64,000 nt of DNA from a candidate division FCPU426 bacterium (GTDB lineage: Bacteria; Oederibacteriota; JAAXVQ01; JAUVAV01): NCBI GenBank assembly GCA_030637655.1, contig DAOWGI010000005.1:4766-68765 (forward strand). The letters run 5' to 3'. Shown one piece after another: positions 11,689-63,115 of the stretch (positions are counted from its first letter, which is position 1; each line of letters starts with the position of its first letter). The notes beneath the pieces were generated by a model that did not search any database, had not been told where the DNA came from, and was given only the letters and a program-made list of their open reading frames with translations. Made by a program: the position numbers and the translations under genes.

Positions 11689-11746
11689 GTAGGGGCACGA
11701 TGCTTGTCCGACATCGCTTTAACGAAGTCGGATGCTGTGCCCCTAC
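11689..11746. repeat. extended REP-like palindrome (GTAGGGGCAC...GTGCCCCTAC) flanked by T-runs
   Basis: 58-nt imperfect hairpin with GTAG/CTAC ends in divergent intergenic region; T-rich tracts on both strands. Confidence 0.5.
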
Positions 11747-11823
11747 AATCTGCCTTTTTTCTTTACATTCAATAAAAAAAACGTATAATTCCTGTATATT
11801 TTGGGATTGGGAGGATCTTTTTT

Positions 11824-12579
11824 ATGTCTGGACATTCCAAATGGGCAACCATTAAACGATCTAAAGCAGCAACTGATGCCAAACGCGGTAAGGCGTTTAC
11901 CAAAGTGACCAAAGAAATAATTCAAGCTGCCAAAAACGGTGGTGGTAATCCTGATATGAACGCTCGTTTGCGGACTGCAATCTTAGCTGCCAAAGCTGTA
12001 AATATGCCGCATGACAATATCAAAAGGGCTATTATGAAAGGAACCGGAGAGTTGGCCGGCGAATCGTATGATGAAATTATATACGAAGGCTATGGTCCTG
12101 GTGGGGTTGCCGTCATGATTGAAATCACCACTGATAACAAAAACCGGTCTGCCTCAGAGATCCGTTCGATTTTTTCCAAACGTAATGGAAATTTGGGTGA
12201 ACCTGGTAGTGTGTCCTGGATGTTTGAGAAAAAAGGACAGATTGTGATTAAAAAAGCGTCTATTTCCGAAGATGATTTGATGACTTTAGCTTTGGAGGCA
12301 GGAGCTGAAGATATTACGACCGAGGAAAGTACATATACTGTAACCACCAATGCCAAGGATTACGAGGCTGTAGATACTGCTTTAAAAGATAAAGTGGAAA
12401 CTGTATCCACGGAAGTTACCATGATCCCGAAAAACGTGATTACCGTGGACAATACCAAAACAGCAGAATCACTCCTGAAATTGTTGGAAACCTTGGAAGA
12501 TCATGATGATGTACAGAATGTGTACTCGAATTTTGATATCCCGGATGAGATAATGGAATCTCTTAGAACAGAAGAATAA
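11824..12579 (+). CDS. yebC: YebC/PmpR family DNA-binding regulator
   Basis: MSGHSKWATIKRSKAATDAKRGKAFTK canonical N-terminus. Confidence 0.9.
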   Translation: MSGHSKWATIKRSKAATDAKRGKAFTKVTKEIIQAAKNGGGNPDMNARLRTAILAAKAVNMPHDNIKRAIMKGTGELAGESYDEIIYEGYGPGGVAVMIEITTDNKNRSASEIRSIFSKRNGNLGEPGSVSWMFEKKGQIVIKKASISEDDLMTLALEAGAEDITTEESTYTVTTNAKDYEAVDTALKDKVETVSTEVTMIPKNVITVDNTKTAESLLKLLETLEDHDDVQNVYSNFDIPDEIMESLRTEE

Positions 12580-12597
12580 TAACAGCGTTAAAGACGC

Positions 12598-13221
12598 ATG
12601 CTTATGCGTCTTTACGAAGGAAAGGGTAGTGTAATTGTGGAAGAAAATGCTTATGATGATTTACGGCTTTACTTGCAGGCCGTAATGCCGAATGCCAAAA
12701 ATATTTCCGGTAAACAGTGCTCCAAACTGTATGGCTTGGTACGCCGGTCCCTGTTATGGGAAAAACAAGAGGAAACCGAAGCTACCCAAGTGTATAGACC
12801 GGAAAGCACAAATGAGTTACAGTTCTTGATCCAATCCTTAAACCTGGCAACTGAGGAAGAAATAAAGGCAGCAGTAGAGGAATTGCAATTATCACCGGAA
12901 GAAAAAGAATTGGAATATGTCCATTGGGCTTTTCGCCGTCAATCTGCCAATGGCGAGATATTGATTCAAGATGCGCTTATTGCTTTCAAGCTGGTACGCA
13001 TGAATCAGTATCAATATTTGCTGCTGTGCCGGGAAAACAATGCCGATGTGGCGGATAGTTTCACACGTGCTTTTAACCATACTCCGGATATTTTTTCAGA
13101 ACACGCTTTAATGATTGAAGATAAAAGCTGTGCCGGTTGGATGTGGATTCTGGATCCTGACAAGGAACGGGCAAACCAAATGAAAGAGGAAATATCCGCG
13201 CTCTGGAAAGTGAAAAAGTAA
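12598..13221 (+). CDS. hypothetical protein (start uncertain; GTG 12640 with AAGGAAAGGG RBS is an alternative)
   Basis: ORF in yebC-psd operon position; annotated ATG lies inside a REP-like hairpin (12589..12614). Confidence 0.35.
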   Translation: MLMRLYEGKGSVIVEENAYDDLRLYLQAVMPNAKNISGKQCSKLYGLVRRSLLWEKQEETEATQVYRPESTNELQFLIQSLNLATEEEIKAAVEELQLSPEEKELEYVHWAFRRQSANGEILIQDALIAFKLVRMNQYQYLLLCRENNADVADSFTRAFNHTPDIFSEHALMIEDKSCAGWMWILDPDKERANQMKEEISALWKVKK

Positions 13222-13883
13222 TGAAATTTCAGATCACCAAACAGAGTAAAGTTGTATTAAATATTTTTATGGCACTTTTTTTTATTGGTCTGCTGACTTT
13301 TATAAGTGCGAAAGATGTATTGAAATACTCAGGGTTTATAATTACCCTGTTTTGTATATTGAGCGTTGGCATTATTATTTATTTCTATCGGGATCCGGAA
13401 CGGCAGACAGTAGCGGATTCGGATATCATTCTGGCGCCGGCGGATGGAATGATCGTGCGCATAGAGCAAACTACTGAGGAGAAACATCTCAAAGGTTCTG
13501 CTACTCTGGTGGCAATATTCATGCATATAGGCAATGTGCATGTCCAGCGCCTGCCCAGTGACGGTACCTTGCTGTGGGAACAGCATCAACCGGGAAAATT
13601 CCGGGCGATCCTGGATCCAAAAGCGCCGATTGAAAATGAACAGCGCTGGTACGCTTTTGCAAATCAAGACCGCAACTTTACCTTGGTTCAAATTGCCGGT
13701 TTGCTTGCCAGACGAACGATTTCCTGGCTACAGCCGCAACAGAAATATACCCGTGGCGAACGTTTGGGAATGATTGCTTTGGGTTCTGAGGTTGATTTAT
13801 ATTTACCGCCTGAGGCGGATATTACAGTCCGGGTTGGAAAAAAGGTAAAAGCGGGTATTACTCCGCTGGGTAGGTGGAAATAA
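13221..13883 (+). CDS. phosphatidylserine decarboxylase family protein (short form)
   Basis: ~220 aa; LGSEV near C-terminus consistent with PSD proenzyme cleavage region; adjacent to CDP-alcohol phosphatidyltransferase. Confidence 0.65.
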   Translation: MKFQITKQSKVVLNIFMALFFIGLLTFISAKDVLKYSGFIITLFCILSVGIIIYFYRDPERQTVADSDIILAPADGMIVRIEQTTEEKHLKGSATLVAIFMHIGNVHVQRLPSDGTLLWEQHQPGKFRAILDPKAPIENEQRWYAFANQDRNFTLVQIAGLLARRTISWLQPQQKYTRGERLGMIALGSEVDLYLPPEADITVRVGKKVKAGITPLGRWK

Positions 13884-14719: not shown

Positions 14720-14725
14720 ATAGGA

Positions 14726-16702
14726 GTGAATGGATCCATGCCGGAGTATTGCATTTCTTTGTCTGAAAATAAAAAAATCGCGGTAGCGCCGGGCACTACG
14801 CTGGGAGAAGCCTTAAAACAGCTCAATCCGGCTTTATACGGTAAAGCCTTAGCCATAAAAATCGGAGACCGGTTTTTTGATCTGGCGCGGGAAGTTCCGG
14901 TTGGTGAGAGTCGCATCACAGTCCTGGATTTTGCCTCGCCGGAAGGCCGGGAGGTATTTCGTCATTCCACCGCACATTTGATGGCCGCGGCAGTCAAAGA
15001 ATTGTTCCCGGAAACAAAAGTAACGATTGGTCCTTCCATCAAAGACGGTTTTTATTATGACTTTGACCGGGATACCCATTTTACCCCGGAAAGCCTGGAA
15101 ACCATTGAGAAACGCATGAAAGAGATTGCTCAAAAGAAACTGTCATTTATCAGAAAAGTCGTGTCCAGAGAAGAAGCCCGTGAGTTGTTTGAAAAAACGG
15201 GGGAGACCTACAAGCTTGAATTGCTGGATGCGATTGAACCCGGCCAGGATGTCTCGCTCTATTTTTTAGGAAACTTTGTTGATCTCTGCCGCGGTCCGCA
15301 TATCCCGCACTCCGGCCTGTTAAAAGCATTCAAGTTGCTCTCCGTGGCCGGCGCGTATTGGCGCGGCGATGAAAATAACAAGATGCTGCAACGGATTTAT
15401 GGGATTGGTTTTGAAAAAAATTCGGGTTTAGAAGCATATTTGCAGCGTTTGGAAGAAGCCAAACGCAGGGACCACCGCCGCTTGGGAAAAGATTTGGATC
15501 TTTTTTCTTTTCATGAAGATTCCGGAGCAGGACTAGTGTACTGGCATCCCAAAGGTTCGAAGATTCGCATGCTCATGGAGGATTTCTGGCGAGCAGAGCA
15601 TTTACAGAATGGGTACGAAATTCTCTATACACCGCATATCGGAAAAGCTCAATTGTGGGAGACTTCCGGTCATTTAGCGTTTTATAAGGAATCCATGTAT
15701 GCACCCATGGTTGTTGATGAACTTGATTATTATATCAGACCTATGAATTGTCCTTTTCATATAAAAATATATAAAAGTGATGTGCGCTCCTATCGCCAGT
15801 TGCCAATGCGCTGGGCGGAGTTGGGAACTGTATATCGCTATGAAAAATCCGGCGTTTTGCACGGTTTGTTCCGGGTTAGAGGATTCACTCAGGATGATGC
15901 GCATATTTTCTGCACACACCGGCAATTGGCGGGCGAAATTCAGGAAGTATTGCGATTTGTGCTGTACATTCTAAAAACCTTTGGATTCAAAGAGTATGAA
16001 ATATATCTCTCTACCAAGCCGGAGAAAGATACTGTGGGTAGTGATGAGGTATGGGACCAAGCTACTGAAGCGTTGCGCAAAGCGCTTGAAAATTCAGGCT
16101 TGCCATATGCTGTGGATGAGGGTGGGGGAACCTTTTATGGTCCGAAAGTGGACATAAAAATCAAAGATTGTTTGGATCGAATCTGGCAATGTTCAACCAT
16201 TCAGGTGGATTTTAATTTGCCGGAACGGTTTGATATGAAATATGTTGGTGAAGATGGAAAAGAGCATCGGCCCATCATGATTCATCGGGCCTTAATGGGT
16301 TCCTTGGAGCGCTTCTTCGGAATTATGGTCGAGCATTATGCCGGCGCTTTTCCGGTTTGGCTGGCGCCAGTGCAAGCCAGGATTTGCACTATTGCGGATC
16401 GTCATCAGGAATTTGCCCAAGAAATTGTGAAGCAATTGAAGTCACACGGAATACGCGTTGATATTGATATGAAAAGCGATAAAGTCAATGCTAAAATACG
16501 CAATGCGCAATTAGAAAAGATACCGTACATGCTGGTGGTGGGAGACCGGGAAGTGGAACAGCAGGCAGCAGCCTTGCGGATACGCACCGGAGAAAATCGC
16601 GGTGCCATGCCAATTGAAGAAATCGCGAAATTAATCCAGCGAAAAAACGCGGATAAGGCGCTTGACCTGGTAGAGACGCGATTAATCGCGTCTCTAGATT
16701 AA
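14726..16702 (+). CDS. thrS: threonyl-tRNA synthetase
   Basis: TGS, editing, class II catalytic (HRALMGSLERF) and anticodon-binding regions; last 11 codons and TAA stop lie inside a tandem REP. Confidence 0.9.
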   Translation: MNGSMPEYCISLSENKKIAVAPGTTLGEALKQLNPALYGKALAIKIGDRFFDLAREVPVGESRITVLDFASPEGREVFRHSTAHLMAAAVKELFPETKVTIGPSIKDGFYYDFDRDTHFTPESLETIEKRMKEIAQKKLSFIRKVVSREEARELFEKTGETYKLELLDAIEPGQDVSLYFLGNFVDLCRGPHIPHSGLLKAFKLLSVAGAYWRGDENNKMLQRIYGIGFEKNSGLEAYLQRLEEAKRRDHRRLGKDLDLFSFHEDSGAGLVYWHPKGSKIRMLMEDFWRAEHLQNGYEILYTPHIGKAQLWETSGHLAFYKESMYAPMVVDELDYYIRPMNCPFHIKIYKSDVRSYRQLPMRWAELGTVYRYEKSGVLHGLFRVRGFTQDDAHIFCTHRQLAGEIQEVLRFVLYILKTFGFKEYEIYLSTKPEKDTVGSDEVWDQATEALRKALENSGLPYAVDEGGGTFYGPKVDIKIKDCLDRIWQCSTIQVDFNLPERFDMKYVGEDGKEHRPIMIHRALMGSLERFFGIMVEHYAGAFPVWLAPVQARICTIADRHQEFAQEIVKQLKSHGIRVDIDMKSDKVNAKIRNAQLEKIPYMLVVGDREVEQQAAALRIRTGENRGAMPIEEIAKLIQRKNADKALDLVETRLIASLD

Positions 16703-16714
16703 TCGCGTCTCTAC
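16670..16714. repeat. tandem REP-like palindrome (GTAGAGACGCGATTAATCGCGTCTCTA x1.5)
   Basis: gtagagacgcgattaatcgcgtctctagattaatcgcgtctctac; overlaps thrS 3' end. Confidence 0.7.
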
Positions 16715-16726
16715 AAAGGATGAAAA

Positions 16727-17929: not shown

Positions 17930-18024
17930 AAATTGTAAGGGCGGGTTTAAAACCCGCCCTTATGGAATATAATAACGTCGGATAATACATATTATGTTAA
18001 CTATGCCGCGGAATATAATAGTGG

Positions 18025-19856: not shown

Positions 19857-19884
19857 GTAGAGACGCATGATTATGCGTCTCTAC
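19857..19884. repeat. REP-like palindrome gtagagacgcatgattatgcgtctctac
   Basis: perfect 10-bp stems with GTAG/CTAC ends; between two minus-strand genes, abutting the RBS. Confidence 0.65.
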
Positions 19885-22438: not shown

Positions 22439-22503
22439 ATATGCGAATCCTTACTTTATTATATATTTAGCTTCGGATATTTTACTGGAAACTTAATGTT
22501 GGG

Positions 22504-22675
22504 TTGTCATTCCCGAACGGTTTAATCGGCCCCGACCGGAAAAGATATATAGGGACGCATTCGGCAGGAATCTGGTTTTTTAAACCGTATCCCCGATACA
22601 AGCATTCGGGGATGACGGCGTGGAGGCTGCATTCGGGGATGACAAACAAAAAAACGCATGATTGCCATGTTCAGT
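22504..22675. mobile_element. MITE (family A composite) copy 1, long form
   Basis: gtcattcccgaa...ttcggggatgac inverted termini with tail aaacaaaaaaacgcatga...; 5 copies in window. Confidence 0.6.
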
Positions 22676-22705
22676 AATGTCTTCGGGGTTACCCCGCCCT
22701 TACAT

Positions 22706-24496: not shown

Positions 24497-24692
24497 GGTT
24501 TCTCTTAACTCCTATCTTTTTTATCACTGCCGAACACGAATACAGCGCATTTAATTACAGAAAAACCCGAGCTAGGCAGCGAAAATATGGCAAGAGGCTG
24601 TCCATTCGGGTAATGTTAAAATTAAAGCTTTATATCATTTTTAGCTTTATATTGCAATGTTTTTCGAAAAAAAATGGCAACCAAAAAATGGC

Positions 24693-24852
24693 AACCTGTC
24701 AGTGAAGCATTTTTTCAGTTTGTCATTCCCGAACGGTTTAATCGGGAATCTGGTTTTTTAAACCGTATCCCCGATACAAGCATTCGGGGATGACAGGGTG
24801 GGGGCTGCATTCACGGATGACAAACAAAAAAATGCATGACTGACATGTTACA
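24693..24852. mobile_element. MITE (family A composite) copy 2, short form with outer TIRs
   Basis: outer gcaacctgtcagtgaagc ... gactgacatgttaca; inner unit lacks 38-nt segment present in copies 1 and 3. Confidence 0.6.
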
Positions 24853-24860
24853 AATAATGG

Positions 24861-28969: not shown

Positions 28970-29037
28970 CTCCTGCCTATTGTTTAAACATATTTAAATA
29001 GTATACTATTCTTTCCAGCTTCGCGCTATGCTTTTAC

Positions 29038-29212
29038 TAACATGTCAGTGAACTGTGGCTAAACAAAGGTTGTCATTCCCGAGGGTTTAATCGGCCCCGA
29101 CCGGAAAAGATATATAGGGACGCATTCGGCAGGAATCTGGTTTTTTAAACCATATCCCCGATACAAGCATTCGGGGATGACAAACAAAAAAAACGCATGA
29201 CTGACATGTTAC
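29038..29212. mobile_element. MITE (family A composite) copy 3, long form with outer TIRs
   Basis: taacatgtcagtgaac...gtcattcccgag...ggggatgacaaacaaaaaaaacgcatgactgacatgttac. Confidence 0.65.
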
Positions 29213-31134: not shown

Positions 31135-31160
31135 ACTCAATGTTATTCTCCTTTGGTATA

Positions 31161-31299
31161 GTAACATGTCAGTGAACTGCGGTTAAACATAAGGTTGTCA
31201 TTCCCGAGGGTTTAATCGGGAATCTGGTTTTTTTAAACCATATCCCCGATACAAGCATTCGGGGATGACAAACAAAAAAACGCTTCACTGACATGATAC
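31161..31299. mobile_element. MITE (family A composite) copy 4, short form
   Basis: gtaacatgtcagtgaactg...gtcattcccgag...ggggatgacaaacaaaaaaacgcttcactgacatgatac; directly upstream of prfB. Confidence 0.65.
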
Positions 31300-31301
31300 C
31301 C

Positions 31302-31347
31302 GATTTATCCGGATTAGCTTTTCCCGCTTCACTGATATGTTACTTTG
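31302..31347. repeat. MITE-B terminal fragment (reverse orientation)
   Basis: rc = gtaacatatcagtgaagcgggaaaagctaatccggataaatcgg, matches 5' end of 24861 and 62883 elements. Confidence 0.5.
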
Positions 31348-33987: not shown

Positions 33988-34164
33988 GAGTGTGAGCATT
34001 TAGTCTGTTTTTTTTATGTTGTCATCCCCGAATGCTCTTATCGGGGATATGGTTTAAAAAACCGGATTCCTGCTGAAGGCGTCCCTATATATCTTTGCCG
34101 GTCGGGGCCGATTAAACCCTCGGGAATGACAACCTTTGTTTAATCACAGTTCACTGACATGTAC
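33985..34164. mobile_element. MITE (family A composite) copy 5, long form, reverse orientation
   Basis: rc of copies 1/3 including 38-nt long-form segment; outer TIR cacagttcactgacatgtac. Confidence 0.6.
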
Positions 34165-34204
34165 GCGTAAAGTATATATTATTATGAGATGGTTAATATA
34201 TGAA

Positions 34205-38959: not shown

Positions 38960-39152
38960 AAACGGACCTCCTATATACCAGGTTATTCTAATATTCTTTA
39001 TTTTAATTGTCAAATGTCAATATAGCGGTAACCCCGGACTTTAGTCCGGGGTTACCGCATTCCCTCTACCTTTTAGGGAGAGGGATAAAGGGTGAGGGTT
39101 ACCTGAATACTCCGCACTTCAGTGCGGGGATGATTTATTCATTGTTAGTTTT

Positions 39153-45861: not shown

Positions 45862-48285
45862 GTGAAACTATCGTGGTCATGGCTTAACGAATTTATTGAT
45901 ATACAGGATATTACTCCTCAAGAACTTGCCCACCGTTTGACAATGAGTGGTTTGGAAGTGTCAGGCATAGAAGATAAATCAAAAGGCATGGAATCTATTG
46001 TGGCCGGACGCTTAAAACAGGTTGTGCCGCATCCCAATGCCGACAAATTAAGCCTTACTATAGTAGAGGTCCCTAACCAGGAGTTGAGAATCGTATGCGG
46101 CGCCAAGAATATTGCAGCCGGTGATATTGTTCCAGTCGCTTTGGAAGGCACTGAATTGCCTAATGGGCTTAAAATCAAGCGTACCAAAATCCGGGGTGAA
46201 GAATCCTGTGGTATGATCTGTTCTGAGAGTGAACTCGGCCTGGCAGCATCCTGTGAAGGCATAATGCAGCTTCCATCAGATACTCCGTTGGGAGCTTTAG
46301 TGATAAACCTTCTCCACTTGAACGATATTACTATTAATGTTGAAATTACTCCCAATCGTTCGGATTGTCTATCGCATATAGGAATCGCGCGTCATCTCTC
46401 TGCTGTTTTGGATCGGCCGTTGAAAATGCCTGCCGTATCTTTAAATGAAAAAGAACCCTTGGCGGCATCAACATATCAGGTCAAGGCAGACCCGGATTCC
46501 GGCTGCTATCGCTACTGCGCGCGCATTATCCGTGATGTGACCATTGCCCCCTCCCCGCTTTGGATGCAACGCCGTTTGGAAGCGGTTGGAATTCGACCTG
46601 TAAACAATATTGTTGACATTACGAATTATGTGCTGATGGAAGTTGGTCATCCACTACATGCTTTTGATCTTGATAAACTGCAAGGCACAACCATCTTGGC
46701 CCGTCGCGCCCAGGAAAAAGAATCCCTGGTTACCCTGGATGGCTTAGAAATAAAATTGGATACAGAGGACCTGGTTATTGCCGACGAGACACGACCGGTC
46801 GCTTTGGCCGGAGTTATGGGCGGAGAAAATACCGAAGTTACGGATATCAGCAAACATATTTTACTCGAAGCTGCTTGGTTTGACACGCGTATTGTCCGCG
46901 CCATGAGCCGGAAAACCGGTTGTAGTTCGGAATCCTCATATCGTTTTGAGCGAGGCACTGACCCGGAATTAGGATTACTACTCGCCCTTGACCGGGCCGC
47001 ACAGCTCATGACTGAACTCGCAAACGGCACCCTGCTCAAAGGCATAATTGATTCCTACCCCGCAAAGATAAAAACTCATAAAATTCGGTTACGTCTGTTA
47101 AGAGCGGAAAAGGTTTTAGGCATGTCTCTGGATGCCGGACAAGCTCTCTCCGCACTCTCGCGGCTCGGTTTTCTGGTGGCAGCCACAGATCAAGAAAATG
47201 TTTATTCAGTACGCGTCCCTACTTTCCGGCCTGACGTCACCATTGAAGAAGATCTTTACGAAGAGATTGCCGAAGTGATTGGTTATGATAAAATCCCAGT
47301 CACTAAACCACAGTTCACCTTGATTTGTCCTGATAAAATACCGTATCAAGAGTTTCAGCAAGCGTGTCGTGCGGTTGCGGTTGGTTCCGGCGCGCAAGAA
47401 ATTTTAACTTACAGCTTTCATAGTCCGGCTCATTTTGACCGTTTGCGTATTCCGCCGGAACACGAGTGCCGCTCTGCCCTGCGGCTTAAAAATCCCATGA
47501 GCGAAGAAATGTCGCTCATGCGGCCCTTGCTCTTGCCGGGTCTGATTGAAACCCTTTCCTACAATCAGCGTCGCGGACAAGATCGTATATATTTATTCGA
47601 GACCGGATCTGTGTTTTTACCTCGCTGCGGAGAACCCTTGCCGGCCGAACCAAAACATTTGGGCCTTGCTTTGTACGGGCCGCAGCAACCCAGGTATTGG
47701 CGTTTGGGTAAAAAGCGTGCGCTGACGGACTTCTATGATTTAAAAGGAATCATTGAGAATATTATACAGCGCTTGCATATCAAGACCAGGATCAGGTTTG
47801 AACCAACGGAATTCCCTTTTTTGCATCCGATGATTTCCTTCAGCCTGCAAAGCGCGGATGGGAAGAGCCTTGGTTGGGCCGGCGCTTTGCATCCGGAGTC
47901 GCAGGAAAAGTATAAATTAAAAGAGACGGTTTTGGTGGCTGAAATTGATTTAACCGCTCTTTTTCCCTTCTGGGTGGAACGACCGGGTGTCAAACGTTTT
48001 TCACGCTATCCGGCAGCTGTCCGTGATATATCTCTGGCAGTGTCCGAGGAAATTCAGGCCGGCGATATAGTCAAAGCCATTTTAGCTGTCGGTCAAGAAC
48101 TGGTTACAGATGTAACTCCCTTTGATCTTTATCAGGGAGAAGAACTTTCCCCCGGCACCAAGAGTTTGGCTTTTGCTTTGACTATGCAAGCCTTGGATCG
48201 TACTTTGTTGGATGAGGAAGTGAATCAAATGCAGACTAAAATAATTTCGCATTTACGGAATAAATTCAACGCTCAGCAGCGCTAA
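45862..48285 (+). CDS. pheT: phenylalanyl-tRNA synthetase beta subunit
   Basis: GTG start 45862 with GGAGG RBS (VKLSWSWLNEFID canonical N-terminus); tRNA-binding, B3/4, B5 and FDX-ACB domains; pheS not adjacent. Confidence 0.9.
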   Translation: MKLSWSWLNEFIDIQDITPQELAHRLTMSGLEVSGIEDKSKGMESIVAGRLKQVVPHPNADKLSLTIVEVPNQELRIVCGAKNIAAGDIVPVALEGTELPNGLKIKRTKIRGEESCGMICSESELGLAASCEGIMQLPSDTPLGALVINLLHLNDITINVEITPNRSDCLSHIGIARHLSAVLDRPLKMPAVSLNEKEPLAASTYQVKADPDSGCYRYCARIIRDVTIAPSPLWMQRRLEAVGIRPVNNIVDITNYVLMEVGHPLHAFDLDKLQGTTILARRAQEKESLVTLDGLEIKLDTEDLVIADETRPVALAGVMGGENTEVTDISKHILLEAAWFDTRIVRAMSRKTGCSSESSYRFERGTDPELGLLLALDRAAQLMTELANGTLLKGIIDSYPAKIKTHKIRLRLLRAEKVLGMSLDAGQALSALSRLGFLVAATDQENVYSVRVPTFRPDVTIEEDLYEEIAEVIGYDKIPVTKPQFTLICPDKIPYQEFQQACRAVAVGSGAQEILTYSFHSPAHFDRLRIPPEHECRSALRLKNPMSEEMSLMRPLLLPGLIETLSYNQRRGQDRIYLFETGSVFLPRCGEPLPAEPKHLGLALYGPQQPRYWRLGKKRALTDFYDLKGIIENIIQRLHIKTRIRFEPTEFPFLHPMISFSLQSADGKSLGWAGALHPESQEKYKLKETVLVAEIDLTALFPFWVERPGVKRFSRYPAAVRDISLAVSEEIQAGDIVKAILAVGQELVTDVTPFDLYQGEELSPGTKSLAFALTMQALDRTLLDEEVNQMQTKIISHLRNKFNAQQR

Positions 48286-49870: not shown

Positions 49871-51655
49871 TTAACCGGCATAATTCCGTTTGAATATTTT
49901 ATCCAGCTCATCCCAGGAAAGGCGAAAAATATAAGGTCTTCCGTGCGGACAGGTCGGCAATCCTTTCAGGGCTCGCATTTGTTTGATGAGTGCCAGCATG
50001 CTTTCCGGTTGCAGGCGTTCTCCGGCTTTCACAGCTGCTTTGCAGGCCATGCTCTGCAAAATTTTTTCTCTAAACTTGTTTTTATCCATCAGCTTACCGG
50101 TCTCAGCCAGCCACTCAATAACCTCATTGACAATGGCAATCAAATCTCCCTGCGGAAATTGATCCGGTTGGGTTTGAATGGTAAAAGTATTGCCGCCCAA
50201 AGGTGATATTTCCAAACCCATCTCAGAAAACAGTTCCCTTGCCTCAGTGAGCAATCCGGTTTGCGAAGGCTTAAGTTCAAACGTTAAAGGCAGCAATAAA
50301 TTTTGCCGGGGCAAGTCCCGTGGCCATTGCAAAAAGGATTCATAAAGAATTCTTTCGTGAACAGCATGTTGATCCACCAGGAAAAAGCCTTGTTCATCTT
50401 GCACGGCAATATAGGTCCGGCCGACCTGACCAATGACACGCAATGCAACTTCCGCGGATGGTTCTTCCCCGATAGGGGCGCGATTAATCGCGCCCCTACC
50501 ATCTATATATGTAGCAATCGATTCTTTCACCCGGTCTTGGGACCAACCCATTGGCAAGGATTGCGGAGAATAAGTAGGGGCGCGATTAATCGCGCCCCTA
50601 CTTGGTTTTTCCTTAGATGTTGAAATATGCAATAAACTCGAGGGTTTACTGCCGGTCAGATCTCCTTGCTGCAGCACATTTTGGATAGTGGTATAAACCA
50701 AATTGTGAATACCATGTTCATCACGCAAACGCACTTCTCTTTTAGCAGGATGCACATTAACATCAACCAGATGATTAGGCATGGTGAAGAACAAATAGCA
50801 GATCGGAAAACGGCCTTCCGGTATTAGTGTCCTATAGGCTTGAATCACAGCATGCGCGATACCACGATGTTCAACCGGGCGTTGATTGATGAAAAAGCGC
50901 ATGCCGAGCCTGGTATTGCGATGATCAGAGGGATTCGCAATTCGTCCTCGAATCCAAATCCCGCCTGCTTCCCTCTCCACTGGCAGCATATTTTGCGGTA
51001 AAGCACTTCCATACAGTGTTGCCAAGCGGTCGGATAATATTTTAGTAGGCGGACAATTAAAAAGTTCACGCCGGTCTACAATCAGTTTAAAACCAACACG
51101 TTTGTGCGCAATAGCGGCCAACTCTACGACTTGTACAATATGGGATTGTTCAGTGGAATGAGTTTTCATAAATTTGCGGCGGGCCGGAGTATTAAAAAAG
51201 AGATCTTCAACAACAATCGTAGTTCCGGCCGCGCAACCGGTTTCGCCTTTTGACGTGATCTTGCCGCCGGAGAGTTTCATGCGAAATCCCACCGATTTTT
51301 TTTCCGGCCGCGTTAAAATTTCCACCTGGGAGACCGCGGCAATGGATGGCAGGGCTTCCCCGCGAAAACCCAAAGTGTCAATATTTTCCAAATCTTCCGC
51401 TTTACTGATTTTACTGGTCGCGTGCCGGGAAAACGCCAATTGGGCATCCTCCACATTCATACCCTGGCCATCGTCAGTCACGCGTATACTTTGGAAACCG
51501 GCACTTTTAATTTCCACTTCAATTCTGGTCGCCTTGGCATCCAGGGCGTTTTCAAGCAACTCTTTAACCACCGCAGCCGGACGTTCCACCACCTCGCCGG
51601 CGGCAATCAGATTGGCAACCTGATCCGATAATATTTTAATATGTGTATTGGTCAT
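49871..51655 (-). CDS. mutL: DNA mismatch repair protein MutL (with two in-frame REP insertions in linker)
   Basis: GHKL ATPase motifs (ELLENALDA, DDGQGM, GFRGEAL) and C-terminal dimerisation domain; linker contains 2x RGAINRAP encoded by REPs. Confidence 0.9.
   Translation of the reverse strand: MTNTHIKILSDQVANLIAAGEVVERPAAVVKELLENALDAKATRIEVEIKSAGFQSIRVTDDGQGMNVEDAQLAFSRHATSKISKAEDLENIDTLGFRGEALPSIAAVSQVEILTRPEKKSVGFRMKLSGGKITSKGETGCAAGTTIVVEDLFFNTPARRKFMKTHSTEQSHIVQVVELAAIAHKRVGFKLIVDRRELFNCPPTKILSDRLATLYGSALPQNMLPVEREAGGIWIRGRIANPSDHRNTRLGMRFFINQRPVEHRGIAHAVIQAYRTLIPEGRFPICYLFFTMPNHLVDVNVHPAKREVRLRDEHGIHNLVYTTIQNVLQQGDLTGSKPSSLLHISTSKEKPSRGAINRAPTYSPQSLPMGWSQDRVKESIATYIDGRGAINRAPIGEEPSAEVALRVIGQVGRTYIAVQDEQGFFLVDQHAVHERILYESFLQWPRDLPRQNLLLPLTFELKPSQTGLLTEARELFSEMGLEISPLGGNTFTIQTQPDQFPQGDLIAIVNEVIEWLAETGKLMDKNKFREKILQSMACKAAVKAGERLQPESMLALIKQMRALKGLPTCPHGRPYIFRLSWDELDKIFKRNYAG
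50470..50498. repeat. REP-like palindrome (ataggggcgcgattaatcgcgcccctac) inside mutL
   Basis: perfect palindrome; in-frame. Confidence 0.7.
50574..50601. repeat. REP-like palindrome (gtaggggcgcgattaatcgcgcccctac) inside mutL
   Basis: perfect palindrome; in-frame. Confidence 0.7.
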
Positions 51656-51672
51656 AATGTCGTGTCCTTATC

Positions 51673-51700
51673 GTAGAGACGCCCAATTTGGGCGTCTCTC
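51673..51700. repeat. REP-like palindrome gtagagacgcccaatttgggcgtctctc
   Basis: same stem family, loop ccaatttgg. Confidence 0.65.
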
Positions 51701-51782
51701 TTGATTTTCATGGTATTTTTATACCTTGTTTTTGGGATTGTGTCAATTTATGGGTGAATTGATAATGATTGATAATGATATT

Positions 51783-51811
51783 GTAGAGACGCCCAATTTG
51801 GGCGTCTCTAC
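51783..51811. repeat. REP-like palindrome gtagagacgcccaatttgggcgtctctac
   Basis: second copy 110 bp downstream. Confidence 0.65.
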
Positions 51812-52121
51812 GTTTGGTGTCCTCACGTTTTTTTCGTCCCCCATCCCCGCGCCTCCTATGTTTTTTATTCAATTGGTATGACAGGAAAAAGAGGATTTTC
51901 TTGCAGGTTATTTTTAATTATCAGGATTGGGTTTTGAGGGAATATTATCTAGAGTCATGATTCATGAGCGTCCCGGAACATGCATTTGCTCCATTTATTG
52001 CCTTCTATCAACTTCCCATACATTGGCTGTTGAACTAGTGAAAAAGCGAACATTGATACTTCCAGGCCCGGAATTTTCGCGTTGAAATTGTTCATATAAA
52101 AAACCTCTTTCATAGTTTACT

Positions 52122-52499
52122 TTATTTCAAATAAACCATGGCCTCCATCTCAATCCGGCAGCTAGCTGGCAAGGCAGCTACCTGCACTACTGCCCGGGCA
52201 GGATACGGTGCCAAGAAAAATTCCTGGTATATTTTATTCATGTCCTGAAACTCTTTGAGATCAGTCATGTAAACCGTGACTTTTGCTGCCTGGGATTTCT
52301 GCGCCTGGCTGGCAATTAGTATTGCTTCCAGGTTACGGAATACCTGCTGGGTCTGTTCAACAATTCCCGGACCAACCAATTTAGCAGTAGTTGAATCCAA
52401 TGGAATCTGGCCGGAAATAAACATCCACTCCCCGGCTTTTACTGCCTGGGAATAGGGCCCAATGGGCTGCGGCGCTTGATTAGTTAAAATAGGTATCAT
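52122..52499 (-). CDS. ridA: RidA/YjgF family enamine-imine deaminase
   Basis: 125 aa; conserved YjgF fold motifs (PARAVVQVAALP...). Confidence 0.8.
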   Translation of the reverse strand: MIPILTNQAPQPIGPYSQAVKAGEWMFISGQIPLDSTTAKLVGPGIVEQTQQVFRNLEAILIASQAQKSQAAKVTVYMTDLKEFQDMNKIYQEFFLAPYPARAVVQVAALPASCRIEMEAMVYLK

Positions 52500-52511
52500 C
52501 TCTCCACCTCT

Positions 52512-53423
52512 TTAAAAATCATCTGGTAATTTAAATACTGTTTCTTTTATTGAAAAATCAACTGAAATATCTTCATCTGGATTTTGTGGTATGTAACTGA
52601 AATATATTTGTTCGGGTCTGAATCTATAATTCCGTTCCTCATTTCCTCTCACATTCACACTAAGTTGATCTGAAATCTTCGCATCTACAATTTCAAAAAG
52701 CTTGCATAGCAACGATTCATCTTCGTTGGACTTTTTCTTATTTAGAGCATCCACAACTTTTATTCTTTTTGAACTGTCCCTATAATGAAAACAGCCATTT
52801 CTAATCAGGTTATTGGCACGTCCAAATAATCTTCCGACCATCTTTTGCATTTTCTTTTTATCCATCCTGGGATAGCTTTTAATTTTATCTTTGCATTTAT
52901 CACATAATTTTATTTTTTTACACTCATCACAAAGTATCTCTTTTTGATCTTTTCCAACAATCCTTTCACACTCTAACCATAAATTCCTGAAAGCATCTAC
53001 CGAGGTAGTTGAATTATTCGCTAACCACAGGTAAAACAATTCTTCCTTTTTTTGACCCCATGTTTTTTCAATATCTGAAATATTTGTTAAAAAGATATAA
53101 CGAGGATTTTTCGAATAACTCATTTCAATACCATGACGCATAGCTTTCCCTGGCTCGCTCTTTATTATGAACCGGATCGCTTTTATTTGAATAGGAAAAG
53201 ATAATATAAACGAAACAGATTGCAGCCAATCTAACAGGTCGCCATCAATTATTTTTTGTGTTTCATCACTAGACTTGGCTTCAAAATCAAGATAAATTTG
53301 CAATACTCCATTTTGATTGTTTTGATTAGGTATTGTAATTATTACATTTCCATTTTTAAATATATGCTCAAAATTTGTTTTTAATCTCGTTTCTAAGTCA
53401 ACCACAATTCTGTATTTATTCAT
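52512..53423 (-). CDS. Abi-like protein with putative HEPN (R-x4-H) motif and zinc ribbon
   Basis: 303 aa, AT-rich codon usage; CDECKKIKLCDKCKDK (2x CxxC) and LIRNGCFHY (R-x4-H); lies downstream of AbiE pair. Confidence 0.35.
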   Translation of the reverse strand: MNKYRIVVDLETRLKTNFEHIFKNGNVIITIPNQNNQNGVLQIYLDFEAKSSDETQKIIDGDLLDWLQSVSFILSFPIQIKAIRFIIKSEPGKAMRHGIEMSYSKNPRYIFLTNISDIEKTWGQKKEELFYLWLANNSTTSVDAFRNLWLECERIVGKDQKEILCDECKKIKLCDKCKDKIKSYPRMDKKKMQKMVGRLFGRANNLIRNGCFHYRDSSKRIKVVDALNKKKSNEDESLLCKLFEIVDAKISDQLSVNVRGNEERNYRFRPEQIYFSYIPQNPDEDISVDFSIKETVFKLPDDF

Positions 53424-53532
53424 ACATCACCATTTTTAATTTGTCATTGCCTGTGCCCTCTGGGTACGAGGTGCATTTTACCGAAGCAATCTCAAAAACG
53501 AAAAATAGATGGCTTCTGCGCTGCACACAACA

Positions 53533-54450
53533 TCAACTCCAAGGACCACTCTTGGCCCAGCTCGTTGGGGTAGGACCAGGGCCGACAGCCGCCTTCATAG
53601 GAAGTAGCAGGAAGTCCCTGAGACGCGAAAGCAGTTCCAGAAATTCAGGCACACCTTCTTCGAGACCGCTCCTGCGAACGAATGCTCTCCACTGGACCGA
53701 TTTCACTTCGTCGCTGCTGAACTCATCCGTCAGGACCAACGGCGGCTCGCTTGGGATGTTGGTCTTGCGTCTCTTGAAGGTCGCTTGTATTGCCCGGACA
53801 AGGATATTGCCGTCGAAGGCGAAGTCCCGCGCCAGCACGTAAAGATCGTAGAAATCCTTCATTCGGCTGTTTGCAATACCCAACATGACCATGGCCTGAA
53901 ATTTCTCGGCAACTACTGTTTCACGCGGGCAGGCCCGAATGCTTGGGACCGGGAAATCCAGAAGCGTGGGATAGCTGATCTTCTTGGCCTTGGGTGTGAC
54001 TACGTCACCAAATCCCACATCGACCTGGATGGGAATTCGAGCCTTGCCAAGGAGTGCCGTTAGCGTGACGCGCTGTCCCGGGTATTCCTGTTCTTCACGG
54101 ATGGGCATGGCATTCACGGTGTTGATATCGAATATCAGGCCGTCAGGTTCGACATCAATACCGCACAGGCTGCGGAATACTTCCGTAAGCCGCTCACTGG
54201 AATTGTCACCATAGCCAAGAAAGTCCATGTCCATTGTTGGCCTGTATGACTGTCCCGTCCAAACCATGAACAGCATGGCTCCCTTGAGTATGAAATCCCC
54301 GGCATACGAAGAGACGGAAAGGCGGTAGAGGAGCCTTTCCGTCGCATAACGCGTCCAAACAAAGTTCGGGTCGTCTCCGGTTTCGCGGATTATGTTGAGA
54401 AGCCGCTGGCGAACAGATGCCGCGACGTTCGATGGCTTGTCCTTGGTCAT
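53533..54450 (-). CDS. abiEii: AbiEii/AbiGii-family nucleotidyltransferase toxin (DUF1814)
   Basis: N-terminal SVRQRLLNIIRETGDDPNFVWTRYATERLLYRLS... canonical; GC-rich relative to flanks. Confidence 0.8.
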   Translation of the reverse strand: MTKDKPSNVAASVRQRLLNIIRETGDDPNFVWTRYATERLLYRLSVSSYAGDFILKGAMLFMVWTGQSYRPTMDMDFLGYGDNSSERLTEVFRSLCGIDVEPDGLIFDINTVNAMPIREEQEYPGQRVTLTALLGKARIPIQVDVGFGDVVTPKAKKISYPTLLDFPVPSIRACPRETVVAEKFQAMVMLGIANSRMKDFYDLYVLARDFAFDGNILVRAIQATFKRRKTNIPSEPPLVLTDEFSSDEVKSVQWRAFVRRSGLEEGVPEFLELLSRLRDFLLLPMKAAVGPGPTPTSWAKSGPWS

Positions 54451-55073
54451 ACGATTGCTTCCATGTACGGACGCATGGTCTTGGTCACCCGGCAGATCTT
54501 AGCATACTTCCATAGCTCATCAGTCGAGCGCTTTCGGCCACGCAAAAATTCTCTGAGCGCTTCGAGCGCAACGTCAAGCCCGATCTTGTTCCTGTACTTG
54601 AAGCAGTCTGCCACGGTCTTGGCGGGGTTGTAGATTCTGACCTGTACGCCTTCAATAGTGTGCTCATCGATACCGTCGGTAAGTGCCTTACCAGAGAAAC
54701 GAACAATCCGTGTTTTGGGGTGCCTCGCTCGCGGACGCGCGGCCCTCCGGTTGAGAGCCATCCAGACTTTGTGAGGAGCCTGTGTTCCGATTTCGTGGAA
54801 ACGAAGGGCGGAGAGCAAGCATATTACCCCCTTGGGAACAGCCTTTACCGCCTGCGCTAGTCCGTGGTAAGCTGTTACATCGGCATCCGGCAGACTATAC
54901 AGCCCACGACCATCGCGCACGAGTTTTCCTTTAGCGCACATCTGCCGCAGGTACTCATGGTGAATCCCGTGTGAACGCACCTCGGCTGTGCTCAAAACAC
55001 CTGTATTGCGAGCGAGTTCCAGTATCTGCCCTGTCTTTCCGCCGCTTTTTTTCATATGCGTAATTATATTCAT
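54447..55073 (-). CDS. abiEi: AbiEi-family antitoxin / transcriptional regulator
   Basis: ~200 aa wHTH + C-terminal domain; 4-bp overlap with abiEii. Confidence 0.7.
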   Translation of the reverse strand: MNIITHMKKSGGKTGQILELARNTGVLSTAEVRSHGIHHEYLRQMCAKGKLVRDGRGLYSLPDADVTAYHGLAQAVKAVPKGVICLLSALRFHEIGTQAPHKVWMALNRRAARPRARHPKTRIVRFSGKALTDGIDEHTIEGVQVRIYNPAKTVADCFKYRNKIGLDVALEALREFLRGRKRSTDELWKYAKICRVTKTMRPYMEAIV

Positions 55074-55160
55074 TTTCTAATAAATGTCAATAGTTTAGCA
55101 AAAAGAAATTCGGTGGTGCTGGAGCATTCACTTTGCGTAACTATTCACACTTTTCCGGCC

Positions 55161-55583
55161 CTAAAATGTTGCACTTCTGCTTACAATTCGCCCTTCATCC
55201 AGTTTGGCGATATGCTTTTCAAATTCAAAATGATCAATGATTTCACGAGCGCGTTTGGAAAAACTCTTAATATAATGGCTGAGATTTTTTGTAATATTGG
55301 CAGGCTCACCCTTTAATTTATCAAATGTGAATTTGCTAATGTTATGGAATGATTGACTAGCAACCCGGTTTAAAACCGGTTCAAGATTCTTTACTTTACT
55401 GCTCTTGATGCTTTGGTATTTGGCCAGCACCTTTTCTTTGGTAGGTTCCAACACACAATCCAAACGCCTTAAAACCGTCATTGGCAGTATAACATCTTTG
55501 TATTTTGGTTCGGTCGGTAGGGACCCACGTAATAAATCCTCTACCTGCCATATAAAACTAACTTTTTCGTTAAAATTGTTCAT
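55161..55583 (-). pseudogene. N-terminal fragment of type I restriction-modification N6-adenine methyltransferase (HsdM N-domain)
   Basis: SFIWQVEDLLRG...YKDVILPMTVLRRLD matches HsdM_N; ORF stops after 140 aa, methylase catalytic domain absent. Confidence 0.55.
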
Positions 55584-55587
55584 TAAG

Positions 55588-55615
55588 GTAGGGAACAGGC
55601 ATGCCTGTTCCCTAC
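55588..55615. repeat. REP-like palindrome gtagggaacaggcatgcctgttccctac
   Basis: perfect palindrome with GTAG/CTAC ends. Confidence 0.6.
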
Positions 55616-55699
55616 GGTCTATTCAAATTTGAGACAGCCAGACGGTCACGGATGATGTCGTTTTATACGCGCCAATTATTTGCGGTATCGGTTTTATCT

Positions 55700-55727
55700 G
55701 TAGGGAACGGTCGCGACCGTTCCCTAC
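55700..55727. repeat. REP-like palindrome gtagggaacggtcgcgaccgttccctac
   Basis: same stem as 55588 copy, different loop. Confidence 0.6.
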
Positions 55728-55837
55728 GAAACAATGATCATCCCCGACAATTCGCACGACACCGCTTATTTTGGTTGCTAGAGATTATAAAAGAGCGGCG
55801 CGGCGCGATTAATCACGCCCCTATAATTAAATATGTT

Positions 55838-59055: not shown

Positions 59056-59117
59056 TATGGATTTGAGTTTACCATATTCTGAATATGAAAACTGCTGGAA
59101 AATTATGCTCTATAAGG

Positions 59118-60344: not shown

Positions 60345-60461
60345 GCTGTTTCAATGCTCCTAAAAATCAGTATTTTTCAATATCATTTCTAATAATATGC
60401 TTTAAATATAAGGAAAAGAGAGCACGTGCCTGCAATTATAATATTTAGTAAATTCATTCTT

Positions 60462-60914: not shown

Positions 60915-61290
60915 GAAGTATGTCTGTAATGTTTCACTCCAGGTTTTTACACTTGGCGATTTTAATCTCATTGGTTTTCAACTTTTTTTTTTTAAAAATT
61001 CTAAAACATTCACTGCCTCCTGCAAAAATAGTTTATCACAGTCACCTTTTTTATTCCGGATTTTATTTTTGTAGCCGCAGGCCGAATTGCCTCACATTAA
61101 ATGTTACAAGGCTGAAATGCCTATAGCCTAATGATATTTGTTGACTCATGAAGGATGTTAATAAACGTTTCTTTTTTTGTCATCCCTATGAATGACAACA
61201 TAAAAAAACCGACCAATTGCTCAAGCTCCTGGCACGATAAGCTGCCACTTGACAAGCCTCTTGACCCGGCATTTCAGCAACCCCTTATTT

Positions 61291-61812
61291 ATATTGTTCA
61301 GCATAATTAGAAAAACCACCGGAATTATGGGCAATTTGATCTCACGCTCCACGCTATCAGACCCCATGTTTAAAATTCTGAGAACACAGCACAGTTTCAT
61401 GAGATTTACAGCTAACATATCTGTATTTGATATGCCTCAACCAGATTCTCAGCACAAGAAAGAGTTAATTCTGTCAATAATCATAGCTCCTCACAACCAG
61501 GAATATATATTCACGTTTTTTATTAAAGTTAGTTGAAATGTACACATTAATTCTGTTCTACTAATTAGAATAACAACAGTATATGTCCTTTACTGTTCCT
61601 GTAAACTCTCATGTAATAAGGCTATTTTTTACTCAGATTTTTTAAGTAATTAATAAATTGCGACTTTAATTTGTGTGTTCTGCATAGTGATTTAGACTTT
61701 ATCTTGAGCTCTAACATCTGATCCTTTACTTTCATTTTGTGATTAATTTCTCAGCCTTCATACTTATTCCCCTGAACATTTAAATAGTTTCTCCAAACAG
61801 AGTAACACAATA
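61291..61812. repeat. ~520-bp AT-rich repeat (family D) copy A
   Basis: ~88% identical to 63203..63737 with 1-nt and 18-nt indels; no conserved reading frame. Confidence 0.65.
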
Positions 61813-62630
61813 ATATATGCCAACAGCGCGGCCTGAATTGGACCCAACCCCCACCGGTTTACGGATCCACTCACCGAGGTATCCCGCGTTGCAACAATAT
61901 CTGATAGGCAATCCATCTATCCCCTTCGGAATAATAAACTGCCAGTGCGGCACCAGCCGGCTGTGATCGTCTATGGTTGCCAGCAGATACGTCTTCTTCC
62001 GCCTCCTGTTTTTCTCCACCTGCGCGGTCCATACATGGCTTCGGATTGCTACAAATCATTTGGATTCTCTGCCTCAAACCGCCTCTGATCCACTGCGGAC
62101 GGCAACGCTGGCTTCATCTTTTCGGCTCAATGCAAAAAACAGTACAGCGGGCTTTCCGCTAACTCCTCTTCTTTCGCGATTTCGCGCTTTTGCAGTTCCA
62201 GGCGTAACCGCGGTATGGAAGCGCGCGGCATCTCGGCTCTCATCAGCAAAATCCCTTCCCCCAATTCGCTCCCCAGTACCCGCTTTGCCCGCGGTCCTCA
62301 CGCACCTGCGGATACAACGACTTCAGCTTTCGCCCTCCGGCCAGATAACGGTGCTGCCAATGCTTGATTGTGCTTTTCGAAATCCGCGTTCGGTATGTCC
62401 CGGGTATTTTATACCTCTGCTCAGACTTCTCCCGCAAAAGCCGCTCCTGCCTCCCTTAGTCCGGCTCGTTCCCACTCACAAACTCCGAAATAACTCCGAA
62501 CCGGAACACTGCCACCTGCTTTTTCGCTTCTTCGTCCATCTTTTGCCTCCTGGTTTAGTTTTTTACTGCTCCCAGGGAGGCCATCACGTCTGATTATAAT
62601 GACACTCGTAGGTTGGCTGGTGGCTGGCAT
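61780..62630 (-). pseudogene. IS481/IS3-type DDE transposase (rve integrase core) remnant, frameshifted and C-terminally truncated
   Basis: LLATIDDHSRLV (D..HSR integrase core motif) in 61780..62019; upstream fragments in two other frames (62243..62437, 62421..62630); GC-rich vs flanking repeats. Confidence 0.5.
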
Positions 62631-62882
62631 TCATTTATCAACACCATCACAGTCTGGACTTTCCAAGGAGTCTTTTTCCCAGATTTTTTGAATCAATGCC
62701 AGCCACTGCCGGTTTGGCACTTTGGGCGGCATAAACCTATAAACTTCATTTCACCACCGCATTGGGGACAGATTAGCGGATTGCCAACAGCGGCATCGCT
62801 AAAGCATTCTCCATGCTTTTTTCAGGATGTCACAAATGAGTTATTTTATTCTGAAAAGTTCAGGAGGAAAATCAAAACATTT

Positions 62883-63115
62883 GTAACAGGTCAGTGAAGT
62901 GCTGTGTTTTGTCAAATAACCCGGAAACATAATCCGGATAAACCGGAACTAAAAAGGTATATTCACCGCAGAGGACGACACATGGATTGTTCTATGTAGA
63001 GACGCGATTAATCGCGTCTCTACAGTTTTTATCCCATCTTTCGGAGGCAAGTCGCGTCCCTGGGAAAAAATAAATTAGCAGACCATATGTCTTTCTCGCT
63101 TCACTGATATGTTAC
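62883..63115. mobile_element. MITE (family B) with TGTAACAGGTCAGTGAAG / CTTCACTGATATGTTACA termini, containing a REP
   Basis: 17-bp TIRs; internal 45 nt shared with 24861 and 31302 copies; REP at 62996..63023. Confidence 0.55.
62996..63023. repeat. REP-like palindrome gtagagacgcgattaatcgcgtctctac
   Basis: identical unit to thrS 3' REP. Confidence 0.7.

Follow-up and report, generated by a model that had tools for sequence, protein, structure and literature searches.

Palindromic repeats and their gene context

The window analyzed here is a 64,000-nucleotide (nt) stretch of contig DAOWGI010000005.1 from a candidate division FCPU426 bacterium, and its genes include yebC, thrS, argJ, pheT and mutL. 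Between and within these genes there were 13 palindromes of the GTAG...CTAC type, spanning positions 10969–63023, each typically 27–29 nt long and almost perfectly palindromic. They are very probably repetitive extragenic palindromes (REPs) of the "double foot" type that goes with subclass 2.4 of TnpA-REP, which is group 4 among the tyrosine transposases associated with REPs (RAYTs; Quentin et al., 2018, PMC6006769). The gene context was obtained from Pfam scans and gene calls, and neither Rfam families nor tRNAs were detected in the window by Rfam and tRNA scans. The window MutL was MCK5243279.1. The nearest named relatives belonged to candidate division FCPU426 (MutL identities of 61 and 47%, chemoreceptor identity of 48%), and the Pfam scan also showed an encoded type IX secretion system (T9SS) sorting domain.

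Eight copies were perfect GTAG...CTAC palindromes with stems of 10–18 bp (11689, 16670, 19857, 50574, 51783, 55588, 55700, and 62996), and their ends agreed with the double foot, 5′ GT[AG]G plus 3′ C[TC]AC. Four copies were damaged in one foot (10969, 12588, 50473, and 51673). The 5′ GTAG was kept in 10 of the 13 copies and the 3′ CTAC in nine. A first-pass annotation of this DNA had reported at least 12 such hairpins between 11689 and 63023; every copy that it cited was recovered in place, and one more was found outside that range, at 10969–10996. Most of its "loops" (GATTAATC, AGGCATGCCT, GGTCGCGACC, and CCAATTTGG) were themselves self-complementary and the real loops measured 3–4 nt, which indicated that the elements are palindromic right to the center. 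The inner sequences varied (TTAA, CATG, CGCG, and GTGCAC), whereas the feet were constant. Five of the seven distinct inner variants in the window were palindromic through the center, including the 4 nt of the would-be loop; by our own estimate such symmetry has a chance of 1/16 per variant, which gives a binomial probability of ~2 × 10⁻⁵.

The family was strongly over-represented. The half-site TAGRGRCGC occurred 18 times in the window against 0.97 expected, a count that none of 100 shuffles reached, and the loose GTAG..CTAC pattern matched 15 times where 4.7 matches were expected. The window held 20 perfect hairpins of 9 bp or more, 12 of them from this family; mononucleotide shuffles gave 0–6 hairpins in total. 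The density of 13 copies per 64 kb was ~18 times that expected by chance; the DNA of the organism that was read comprised the window plus two overlapping contigs. Folded as single-stranded DNA, 12 of the 13 copies reached −10.6 to −19.1 kcal/mol with z-scores of −4.7 to −9.6, the exception being the copy at 55797. An assembly artifact was ruled out by the identical sequence in three independent assemblies (including GCA_023139775.1 and ENA ERZ23498528), and the apparent differences between the window and the compared stretch L119 were scaffold gaps.

The copies were also clustered: four gaps between neighbors were at most 120 nt, which has a probability of ~10⁻⁴ under random placement. The same inner variant was shared within each of the close groups 50473/50574, 51673/51783, and 55588/55700/55797, and local copying or conversion among neighbors would be the simplest account of this. 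The members of the pairs stood 97–112 nt apart, with spacers that were neither repeated nor self-complementary. A perfect palindrome has no orientation and the spacers were unrelated, so the inverted doublet at fixed short spacing that defines bacterial interspersed mosaic elements (BIMEs) and REP doublets forming hairpins (REPINs) was lacking, and the idea of BIME-like pairing did not hold. A clustered regularly interspaced short palindromic repeat (CRISPR) array was ruled out by the irregular spacing.

Ten of the 13 copies were intergenic, several of them located 8–14 nt past a stop codon or in short same-strand spacers, while one overlapped the thrS stop codon and two lay inside mutL; the earlier statement that copies sit at gene ends and within coding sequence was therefore correct. 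The copy at 10969–10996 (GTAGGGGCGTTTAATTAAACGCCCCCAC, 3′ foot CCAC) was found between convergent PilZ genes. The element at 11689–11746, in the divergent intergenic region upstream of yebC, was a long double-foot form of 58 nt in which an outer stem (GTAGGGGCAC/GTGCCCCTAC) was combined with an inner imperfect hairpin (−19.1 kcal/mol, z −6.1). Nine nt past the yebC stop codon began a decaying copy (12588–12615, TTAAAGACGCATGCTTATGCGTCTTTAC) with the feet TTAA...TTAC and one compensated change from a G:C to an A:T pair. The 45-nt element at 16670–16714 represented ~1.6 copies, a 28-mer plus a 17-nt tandem duplication of its 3′ part, and ended 12 nt before the argJ start, and the copy at 19857–19884 (GTAGAGACGCATGATTATGCGTCTCTAC) lay within the 49-nt spacer of two minus-strand genes. 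Upstream of mutL, a copy of the CCAATTTGG variant (51673–51701, 3′ foot CTCT) was located 18 nt from the start of the gene, followed by GTAGAGACGCCCAATTTGGGCGTCTCTAC at 51783–51811. Two perfect palindromes, GTAGGGAACAGGCATGCCTGTTCCCTAC (55588–55615) and GTAGGGAACGGTCGCGACCGTTCCCTAC (55700–55727), preceded a decayed GATTAATC-type copy (55797–55824), which gave no fold (z +0.69) and ended 14 nt before the stop codon (55838) of a DUF5683 gene, which runs on the minus strand, so that it lay immediately downstream of the gene. The last copy (62996–63023) was the exact 28-mer GTAGAGACGCGATTAATCGCGTCTCTAC, which also occurs in many phyla, and it was followed by a T-run that made it terminator-like on the plus strand.

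Two genes contained REP-derived codons. In mutL (49871–51655, minus strand), two in-frame copies lay between the DNA_mis_repair domain, which ends at residue 328, and the MutL_C domain, which starts at residue 408. The 28-nt copy at 50574–50601, whose palindrome reaches 32 nt (50572–50603), encoded RGAINRAPT at residues ~352–360; the 27-nt copy at 50473–50499, which lacks the 5′ G, encoded RGAINRAPI at residues ~387–395 in a disordered linker. A MutL ortholog of 79% identity was without the first insert (the 50574 copy), and the second fell in a hypervariable stretch. No insertion polymorphism was seen among the members of the MutL cluster, all of which bore both REPs. In our reconstruction, the two copies could have added a net 30 and 27 nt, lengths that both keep the frame, and the frame-keeping length of 27 nt would explain the missing terminal base of the second copy. 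In thrS (14726–16702, plus strand), the last 10 codons and the stop codon came from the REP at 16670, which gave the threonyl-tRNA synthetase (ThrRS) the tail VETRLIASLD (...ALDLVETRLIASLD*).

Occurrence in other genomes and linkage to RAYT genes

The query TAGRGRCGCGATTAATCGCGYCYCTA was scanned across genomes, with one genome per species; at least 116 stretches matched, and 122 matches were listed. According to our count from the record titles, the stretches listed comprised 48 cyanobacterial, 46 Bacteroidota, 10 Patescibacteria, four gammaproteobacterial, and eight other entries (Myxococcota, Abditibacteriaceae, Spirochaetia, Omnitrophota, "Altimarinota," and one unclassified), and cultured strains with complete genomes were among them. 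The 26-nt core TAGAGACGCGATTAATCGCGTCTCTA was identical in 116 of the 122 matches listed, the G...C feet were present in 113 of them, and the full 28-mer GTAGAGACGCGATTAATCGCGTCTCTAC was the commonest variant, with 109 copies in 103 loci. The flanks of the 122 listed copies were unrelated and showed no target-site duplication. Partial tandem or nested forms akin to the element at 16670 were found in L047, L057, L058, and L087 among others, and in many Bacteroidota loci the palindrome was extended by its flanks. Only one of the listed genome stretches, L035, had a longer match to the window (41 nt), and its proteins were unrelated to those of the window. The exact 28-mer was also observed in 14 predicted viral contigs from IMG/VR (L129–L142), with three copies each in L131 and L141, and no RAYT gene was found in these 14 contigs.

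A profile search of all open reading frames (ORFs) in the listed stretches detected RAYT-like ORFs in seven loci, eight ORFs altogether, and every locus was from Bacteroidota. They carried the motifs ...YFVTICT..., VVMPNHIHAIV, FAWQxRFHDHIIRN, and YIENN(V/P), and matched NCBIfam NF047646, "REP-associated tyrosine transposase," with E-values of 10⁻¹² to 10⁻¹⁴, below the equivalog cut-off; their sole PDB match was the Escherichia coli TnpA-REP (4ER8). These genes were flanked by the palindromes described here, the identical 28-mer included, and L015 had seven palindromes within 1.5 kb. The seven Bacteroidota loci thus had intact REPtrons (a RAYT gene between its own REPs) with this 28-mer, which was also inserted in frame within the gene. 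The first-pass annotation had likened the 5′ GTAG to the tetranucleotide recognized by RAYTs, and this comparison was borne out by the palindromes flanking and sitting inside RAYT-like genes elsewhere and by a RAYT pseudogene at the corresponding locus of a sister genome.

Six of the RAYTs were aligned (L015, L034, L049, L065, L091, and L098) and shared PNH[IV]H, AWQ, and YI(E/I)NN(V/P). All six had a REP-derived peptide at one and the same alignment position, namely RDAINRVST in four, VETRLIASL in one, and RDGVHTVST in L015, although the proteins were only 38–62% identical to the reference. The in-gene REP was the exact 28-mer in five RAYTs; in L015 it was GTAGAGACGGTGTGCACACCGTCTCTAC, the dominant variant of its own flanks. 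This suggested concerted evolution of the internal and external REP copies. RDAINRVS or VETRLIASL was present in 48 of the best 120 homologs in a protein collection, a figure that is inflated by the presence of the peptide in the query profile.

These features are those reported for subclass 2.4, whose enzymes have the motifs NH[IFV]H, WQ, and YIxNNP, whose 28-nt REPs have the double foot, and in which REPs occur in frame inside tnpA-REP (PMC6006769). In our data, the enzyme motifs and the in-frame REP insert between HuH and Y were found in the related loci and not in the window. The subclass is distributed over Cyanobacteria, Bacteroidetes, and various other phyla (PMC6006769), and 61 species, which belong to 17 classes, have been reported to carry group 4 RAYTs (Bertels et al., 2017, PMC5581495). 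Table S1 of PMC6006769 includes 28-nt REPs with the same feet, GTAGAGACGCACGGCCGTGCGTCTCTAC, GTAGGGGCACAGCGCGCTGTGCCCCTAC (code CaggA01), GTAGAGACAAGGCATGCCTTGTCTCTAC (AesuA01), and GTAGGGGCGAAAAATTTTTCGCCCCTAC (CaerA01), as well as long cyanobacterial forms that resemble the 58-nt element of the window.

The mutL locus and other repeats of the window

The gene order DUF5683-mutL-miaA-zapA-pheT was kept in relatives. The closest relative was L121, whose MutL was 79% identical. Upstream of its mutL, a stretch of 425 nt contained, in order, a REP at 7280–7308 (GTAGAGACGCCCAAATTGGGTGTCTCTAC), the C-terminal half of a RAYT, a promoter-like block, and a second REP at 7577–7605. The stretch 7277–7534 was a subclass 2.4 RAYT pseudogene of which only the C-terminal half was left; it started at its internal REP, contained in-frame stops (...NFTWQYRFHEHIIRDEIAYVKIAEYIANNPMNWEVDDEY), gave tblastn E-values down to 5 × 10⁻¹² over 7277–7510, and encoded the motifs WQYRFHEH...YIANNP.

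The promoter-like block (TTGACA-17-TATAAA) just upstream of mutL was conserved between L121 and the window, and the alignment ran through it. The window had its proximal REP (51673) at the position of the L121 copy at 7577–7605, and ~80 nt further on the REP at 51783 matched the REP inside the L121 pseudogene in 28 of 29 nt, with no RAYT remnant between the two. Since this pair corresponds to the site of the L121 pseudogene, the interval 51673–51811 (minus strand) was read as a putative REPtron relic of which two REPs are left. The interiors of the proximal REP differed between the two species (CCCAAATTGGG vs. TTGCAATGCAA), while the feet were unchanged, a pattern more in keeping with replacement or conversion than with point mutations. 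In remoter relatives (67 and 47% MutL identity), no such palindromes were found in ~21 kb each, and the DUF5683 gene adjoined mutL. A weak tblastn similarity of RAYT C-termini at 46597–46689 of the window was antisense in pheT and recurred in the pheT of L121, and it was judged to be a chance match.

A stretch of 4.1 kb (51656–55837) separated mutL from the DUF5683 gene in the window and had REP clusters at both ends. It contained an island of minus-strand genes (52122–55583) encoding a RidA-like protein, an unknown protein of 303 aa, AbiEii, AbiEi, and an N-terminal fragment only of HsdM. This island was absent from L122 and L123, in which mutL and the DUF5683 gene were adjacent.

Other repeats were observed as well. 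A family of ~170 nt resembling miniature inverted-repeat transposable elements (MITEs) had five copies in 12 kb, four on the plus strand (22470–22690, 24680–24860, 29030–29210, and 31140–31320) and one on the minus strand (33990–34180). Its outer inverted ends were ACATGTCAGTGAAC.../...ACTGACATGT and its inner hairpin ATCCCCGA-N9-TCGGGGAT, and two copies were without a 38-nt internal block. The 29-nt core of this family was found in 30 metagenome contigs with GC contents of 0.39–0.59, which indicated that the family is not specific to this lineage; none of these contigs held a RAYT or the GTAG REP family. A direct repeat of ~520 nt, 84–92% identical, was located at 61286–61807 and 63194–63735 (~1.92 kb from start to start) and enclosed the REP at 62996 and two ORFs without Pfam matches. 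Two further strong and perfect hairpins did not belong to the GTAG type: one at 17936–17962 (TAAGGGCGGGTTTAAAACCCGCCCTTA), between the convergent argJ and a tetratricopeptide repeat (TPR) gene, and one at 39025–39058 with a 16-bp stem (GCGGTAACCCCGGACT..AGTCCGGGGTTACCGC).

Origin of the palindromes and rival explanations

If the palindromes are double-foot REPs, the guide tetranucleotide GT[AG]G would stand at the 5′ end of both strands, so that the element reads GTAG...CTAC, and in transiently single-stranded DNA each strand would fold to the same hairpin. Either strand could be the substrate, because the element is identical on both. A tyrosine transposase of the HuH/Y1 type would recognize foot and stem, cleave and rejoin the DNA, and thereby copy the hairpin to new sites or swap hairpins at existing ones. 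Copies would be retained at sites where they are nearly harmless or bring some benefit, such as directly behind stop codons, in the short spacers of operons, and in 5′ untranslated regions, and intragenic copies would be retained only if they add a number of nucleotides divisible by three at a flexible loop. In this lineage the RAYT locus beside mutL would have decayed and left the REP pair 51673/51783. We infer mobilization by a RAYT enzyme, and the palindromes may also have roles in mRNA stability, termination, or mutL regulation.

Several observations weigh against this assignment. The 64-kb window contained no RAYT gene or recognizable fragment according to tblastn and a RAYT profile, in line with the first-pass annotation, which had seen no IS200-like HuH gene there, and the proposed relic was deduced from a sister genome instead of being visible in the window itself. 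The RAYT-linked examples were all from Bacteroidota, and no RAYT was located within 8 kb in any of the 48 listed cyanobacterial stretches. Against Pfam Y1_Tnp, the RAYT-like ORFs gave weak matches below the gathering score. We know of no biochemical demonstration that a subclass 2.4 enzyme moves double-foot REPs. In addition, symmetry through the loop exceeds what hairpin recognition needs; the collapse of inverted dimers, an origin suggested by Quentin et al., would fit it, as would correction through template switching, and there is a small chance that it reflects a role of duplex DNA. Cleavage and rejoining of REPs by a RAYT has been shown only for the E. coli TnpA-REP (PMC6006769).

Among the other explanations, one keeps the REP identity and gives up present activity: the palindromes might be leftovers of a past RAYT invasion, with no active RAYT now, kept by selection on hairpin function or by self-correcting template switching at quasi-palindromes. 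We consider this less probable than not, yet a serious possibility. The only RAYT trace in the lineage was the pseudogene of the sister genome, which has been deleted even from the window, and the copies at 12588, 51673, 55797, and 10969 were decaying. Two species whose MutL proteins are 79% identical share the position of the REP upstream of mutL, from which it follows that copies can be old, and genomes with REPs and without tnpA-REP have been mentioned by Quentin et al. (PMC6006769). However, eight or nine of the 13 copies were still perfect palindromes, adjacent copies had the same inner variant, and the mutL-upstream REP had changed its interior between the species with its feet intact, which suggests continuing turnover; moreover, the RAYT search in this genome covered the 64-kb window.

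It is very unlikely that the copies are regulatory hairpins of the host, such as intrinsic terminators, attenuators, or mRNA stabilizers, that arose in place and are immobile. Most copies did lie just past stop codons or in short spacers, and four of the 13 were terminator-like on the plus strand. However, three of these four faced against the local genes and only the copy at 62996 followed a plus-strand ORF, so the family as a whole lacked the combination expected of intrinsic terminators, a GC-rich gene-end hairpin followed by T residues in the transcribed strand. An origin in place is also at odds with the occurrence of identical sequences of 27–29 nt at loci that are unrelated, within two ORFs, and, with flanks that differ, in over 10 phyla, as well as with the lack of an Rfam match.

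We attach equally little probability to the view that a dimeric protein, for example a regulator, a nucleoid protein, or a restriction-modification enzyme, binds the palindromes as double strands. This view would account for the dyad symmetry through the center, which hairpin stability does not demand. In an operator, however, the interior would be fixed, and here the interior was free to vary and the feet were fixed; copies lay inside ORFs, the specific and repeated linkage was to RAYT genes, and the collapse of an inverted REP dimer yields perfect symmetry too (PMC6006769). MITEs or IS200/IS605 ends moved by another transposase (DDE, or TnpA-IS200 with TnpB) deserve hardly any credence, since, although the elements are small, dispersed, and palindromic and a separate MITE-like family is present in the window, the whole element is a palindrome with no internal sequence between terminal repeats, target-site duplications were absent, and the 845 kb of sampled loci had no transposase, tnpB, or IS200-type tnpA beside the copies, only RAYT-type genes.

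The assignment to double-foot REPs was compared with the published systems. A full-text literature search found no paper on the exact palindromes; double-foot REPs have been published for subclass 2.4, and the class of element is thus already described. Like those REPs, the window copies are 28-nt palindromes with the feet GTAGAGAC/GTAGGGGC, with several variants per genome and a patchy spread over many phyla centered on Cyanobacteria and Bacteroidetes. They differ in that the published table lacks the inner variants of the window, GATTAATC among them, that an FCPU426-related host is not covered by the published set, and that the window has no intact RAYT, only a relic deduced from the sister genome. 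With the REPs and BIMEs of E. coli and the enterobacterial GTAG-3 REPs, they share the 5′ GTAG guide followed by a GC-rich hairpin, the mostly extragenic location near gene 3′ ends, and a homologous HuH/Y1 enzyme. In contrast, E. coli REPs are asymmetric, with one foot, bulged imperfect stems, non-complementary loops, and oriented BIME arrays, whereas the window REPs are perfect palindromes without orientation, in pairs with unrelated spacers.

The REPINs of Pseudomonas (Bertels and Rainey, 2011, PMC3116915) are likewise short palindromic repeats, often close together and linked to a single-copy RAYT. However, a REPIN consists of two inverted REPs that form one long hairpin at fixed short spacing, and in the window, where 97–112 nt separate paired copies and the spacers do not pair, the sole element similar to such a doublet hairpin is the 58-nt one at 11689. 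The GTAG superfamily also includes REPs whose ends supply stop codons, and in-frame REPs are enriched in genes for DNA repair and tRNA synthetases (Di Nocera et al., 2013, PMC3733652). The insertions in mutL and thrS follow that preference, and like the intragenic GTAG/CGTC REPs and the Rickettsia palindromic elements (RPEs) they are in-frame palindromic insertions that add ~9–10 residues, or stop codons from REP ends. However, mutL is not among the hosts in the main text of PMC3733652 (no occurrence), and RPEs are longer and without the GTAG tag.

None of these findings overturns the current understanding; they extend the double-foot REP/RAYT system of subclass 2.4 to an FCPU426-related lineage. 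That the MutL linker and the C-terminus of ThrRS tolerate peptides encoded by REPs is relevant to gene calling and protein annotation in metagenome-assembled genomes. The mutL locus provides a dated example of putative REPtron decay, from an intact state in other phyla through a pseudogene in a sister species to the two REPs found here. One exact 28-mer common to Cyanobacteria, Bacteroidota, Patescibacteria, and others, with linked RAYTs that are 38–62% identical, offers a handle on the constraint or the spread of REP sequences. We tentatively raise the possibility, doubtful at present, that the 28-mer and its RAYT form a self-contained element that is still moving between phyla: the RAYT would bring a copy of its substrate along, in frame within its ORF, so that whenever the gene is transferred, possibly via phages, the recipient genome would be seeded with REPs, and the perfect identity seen in more than 10 phyla would stem from horizontal spread that is still going on or from selection acting directly on the DNA sequence. 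If true, this would contrast with the usual view of a vertically inherited, domesticated RAYT with clade-specific REPs.

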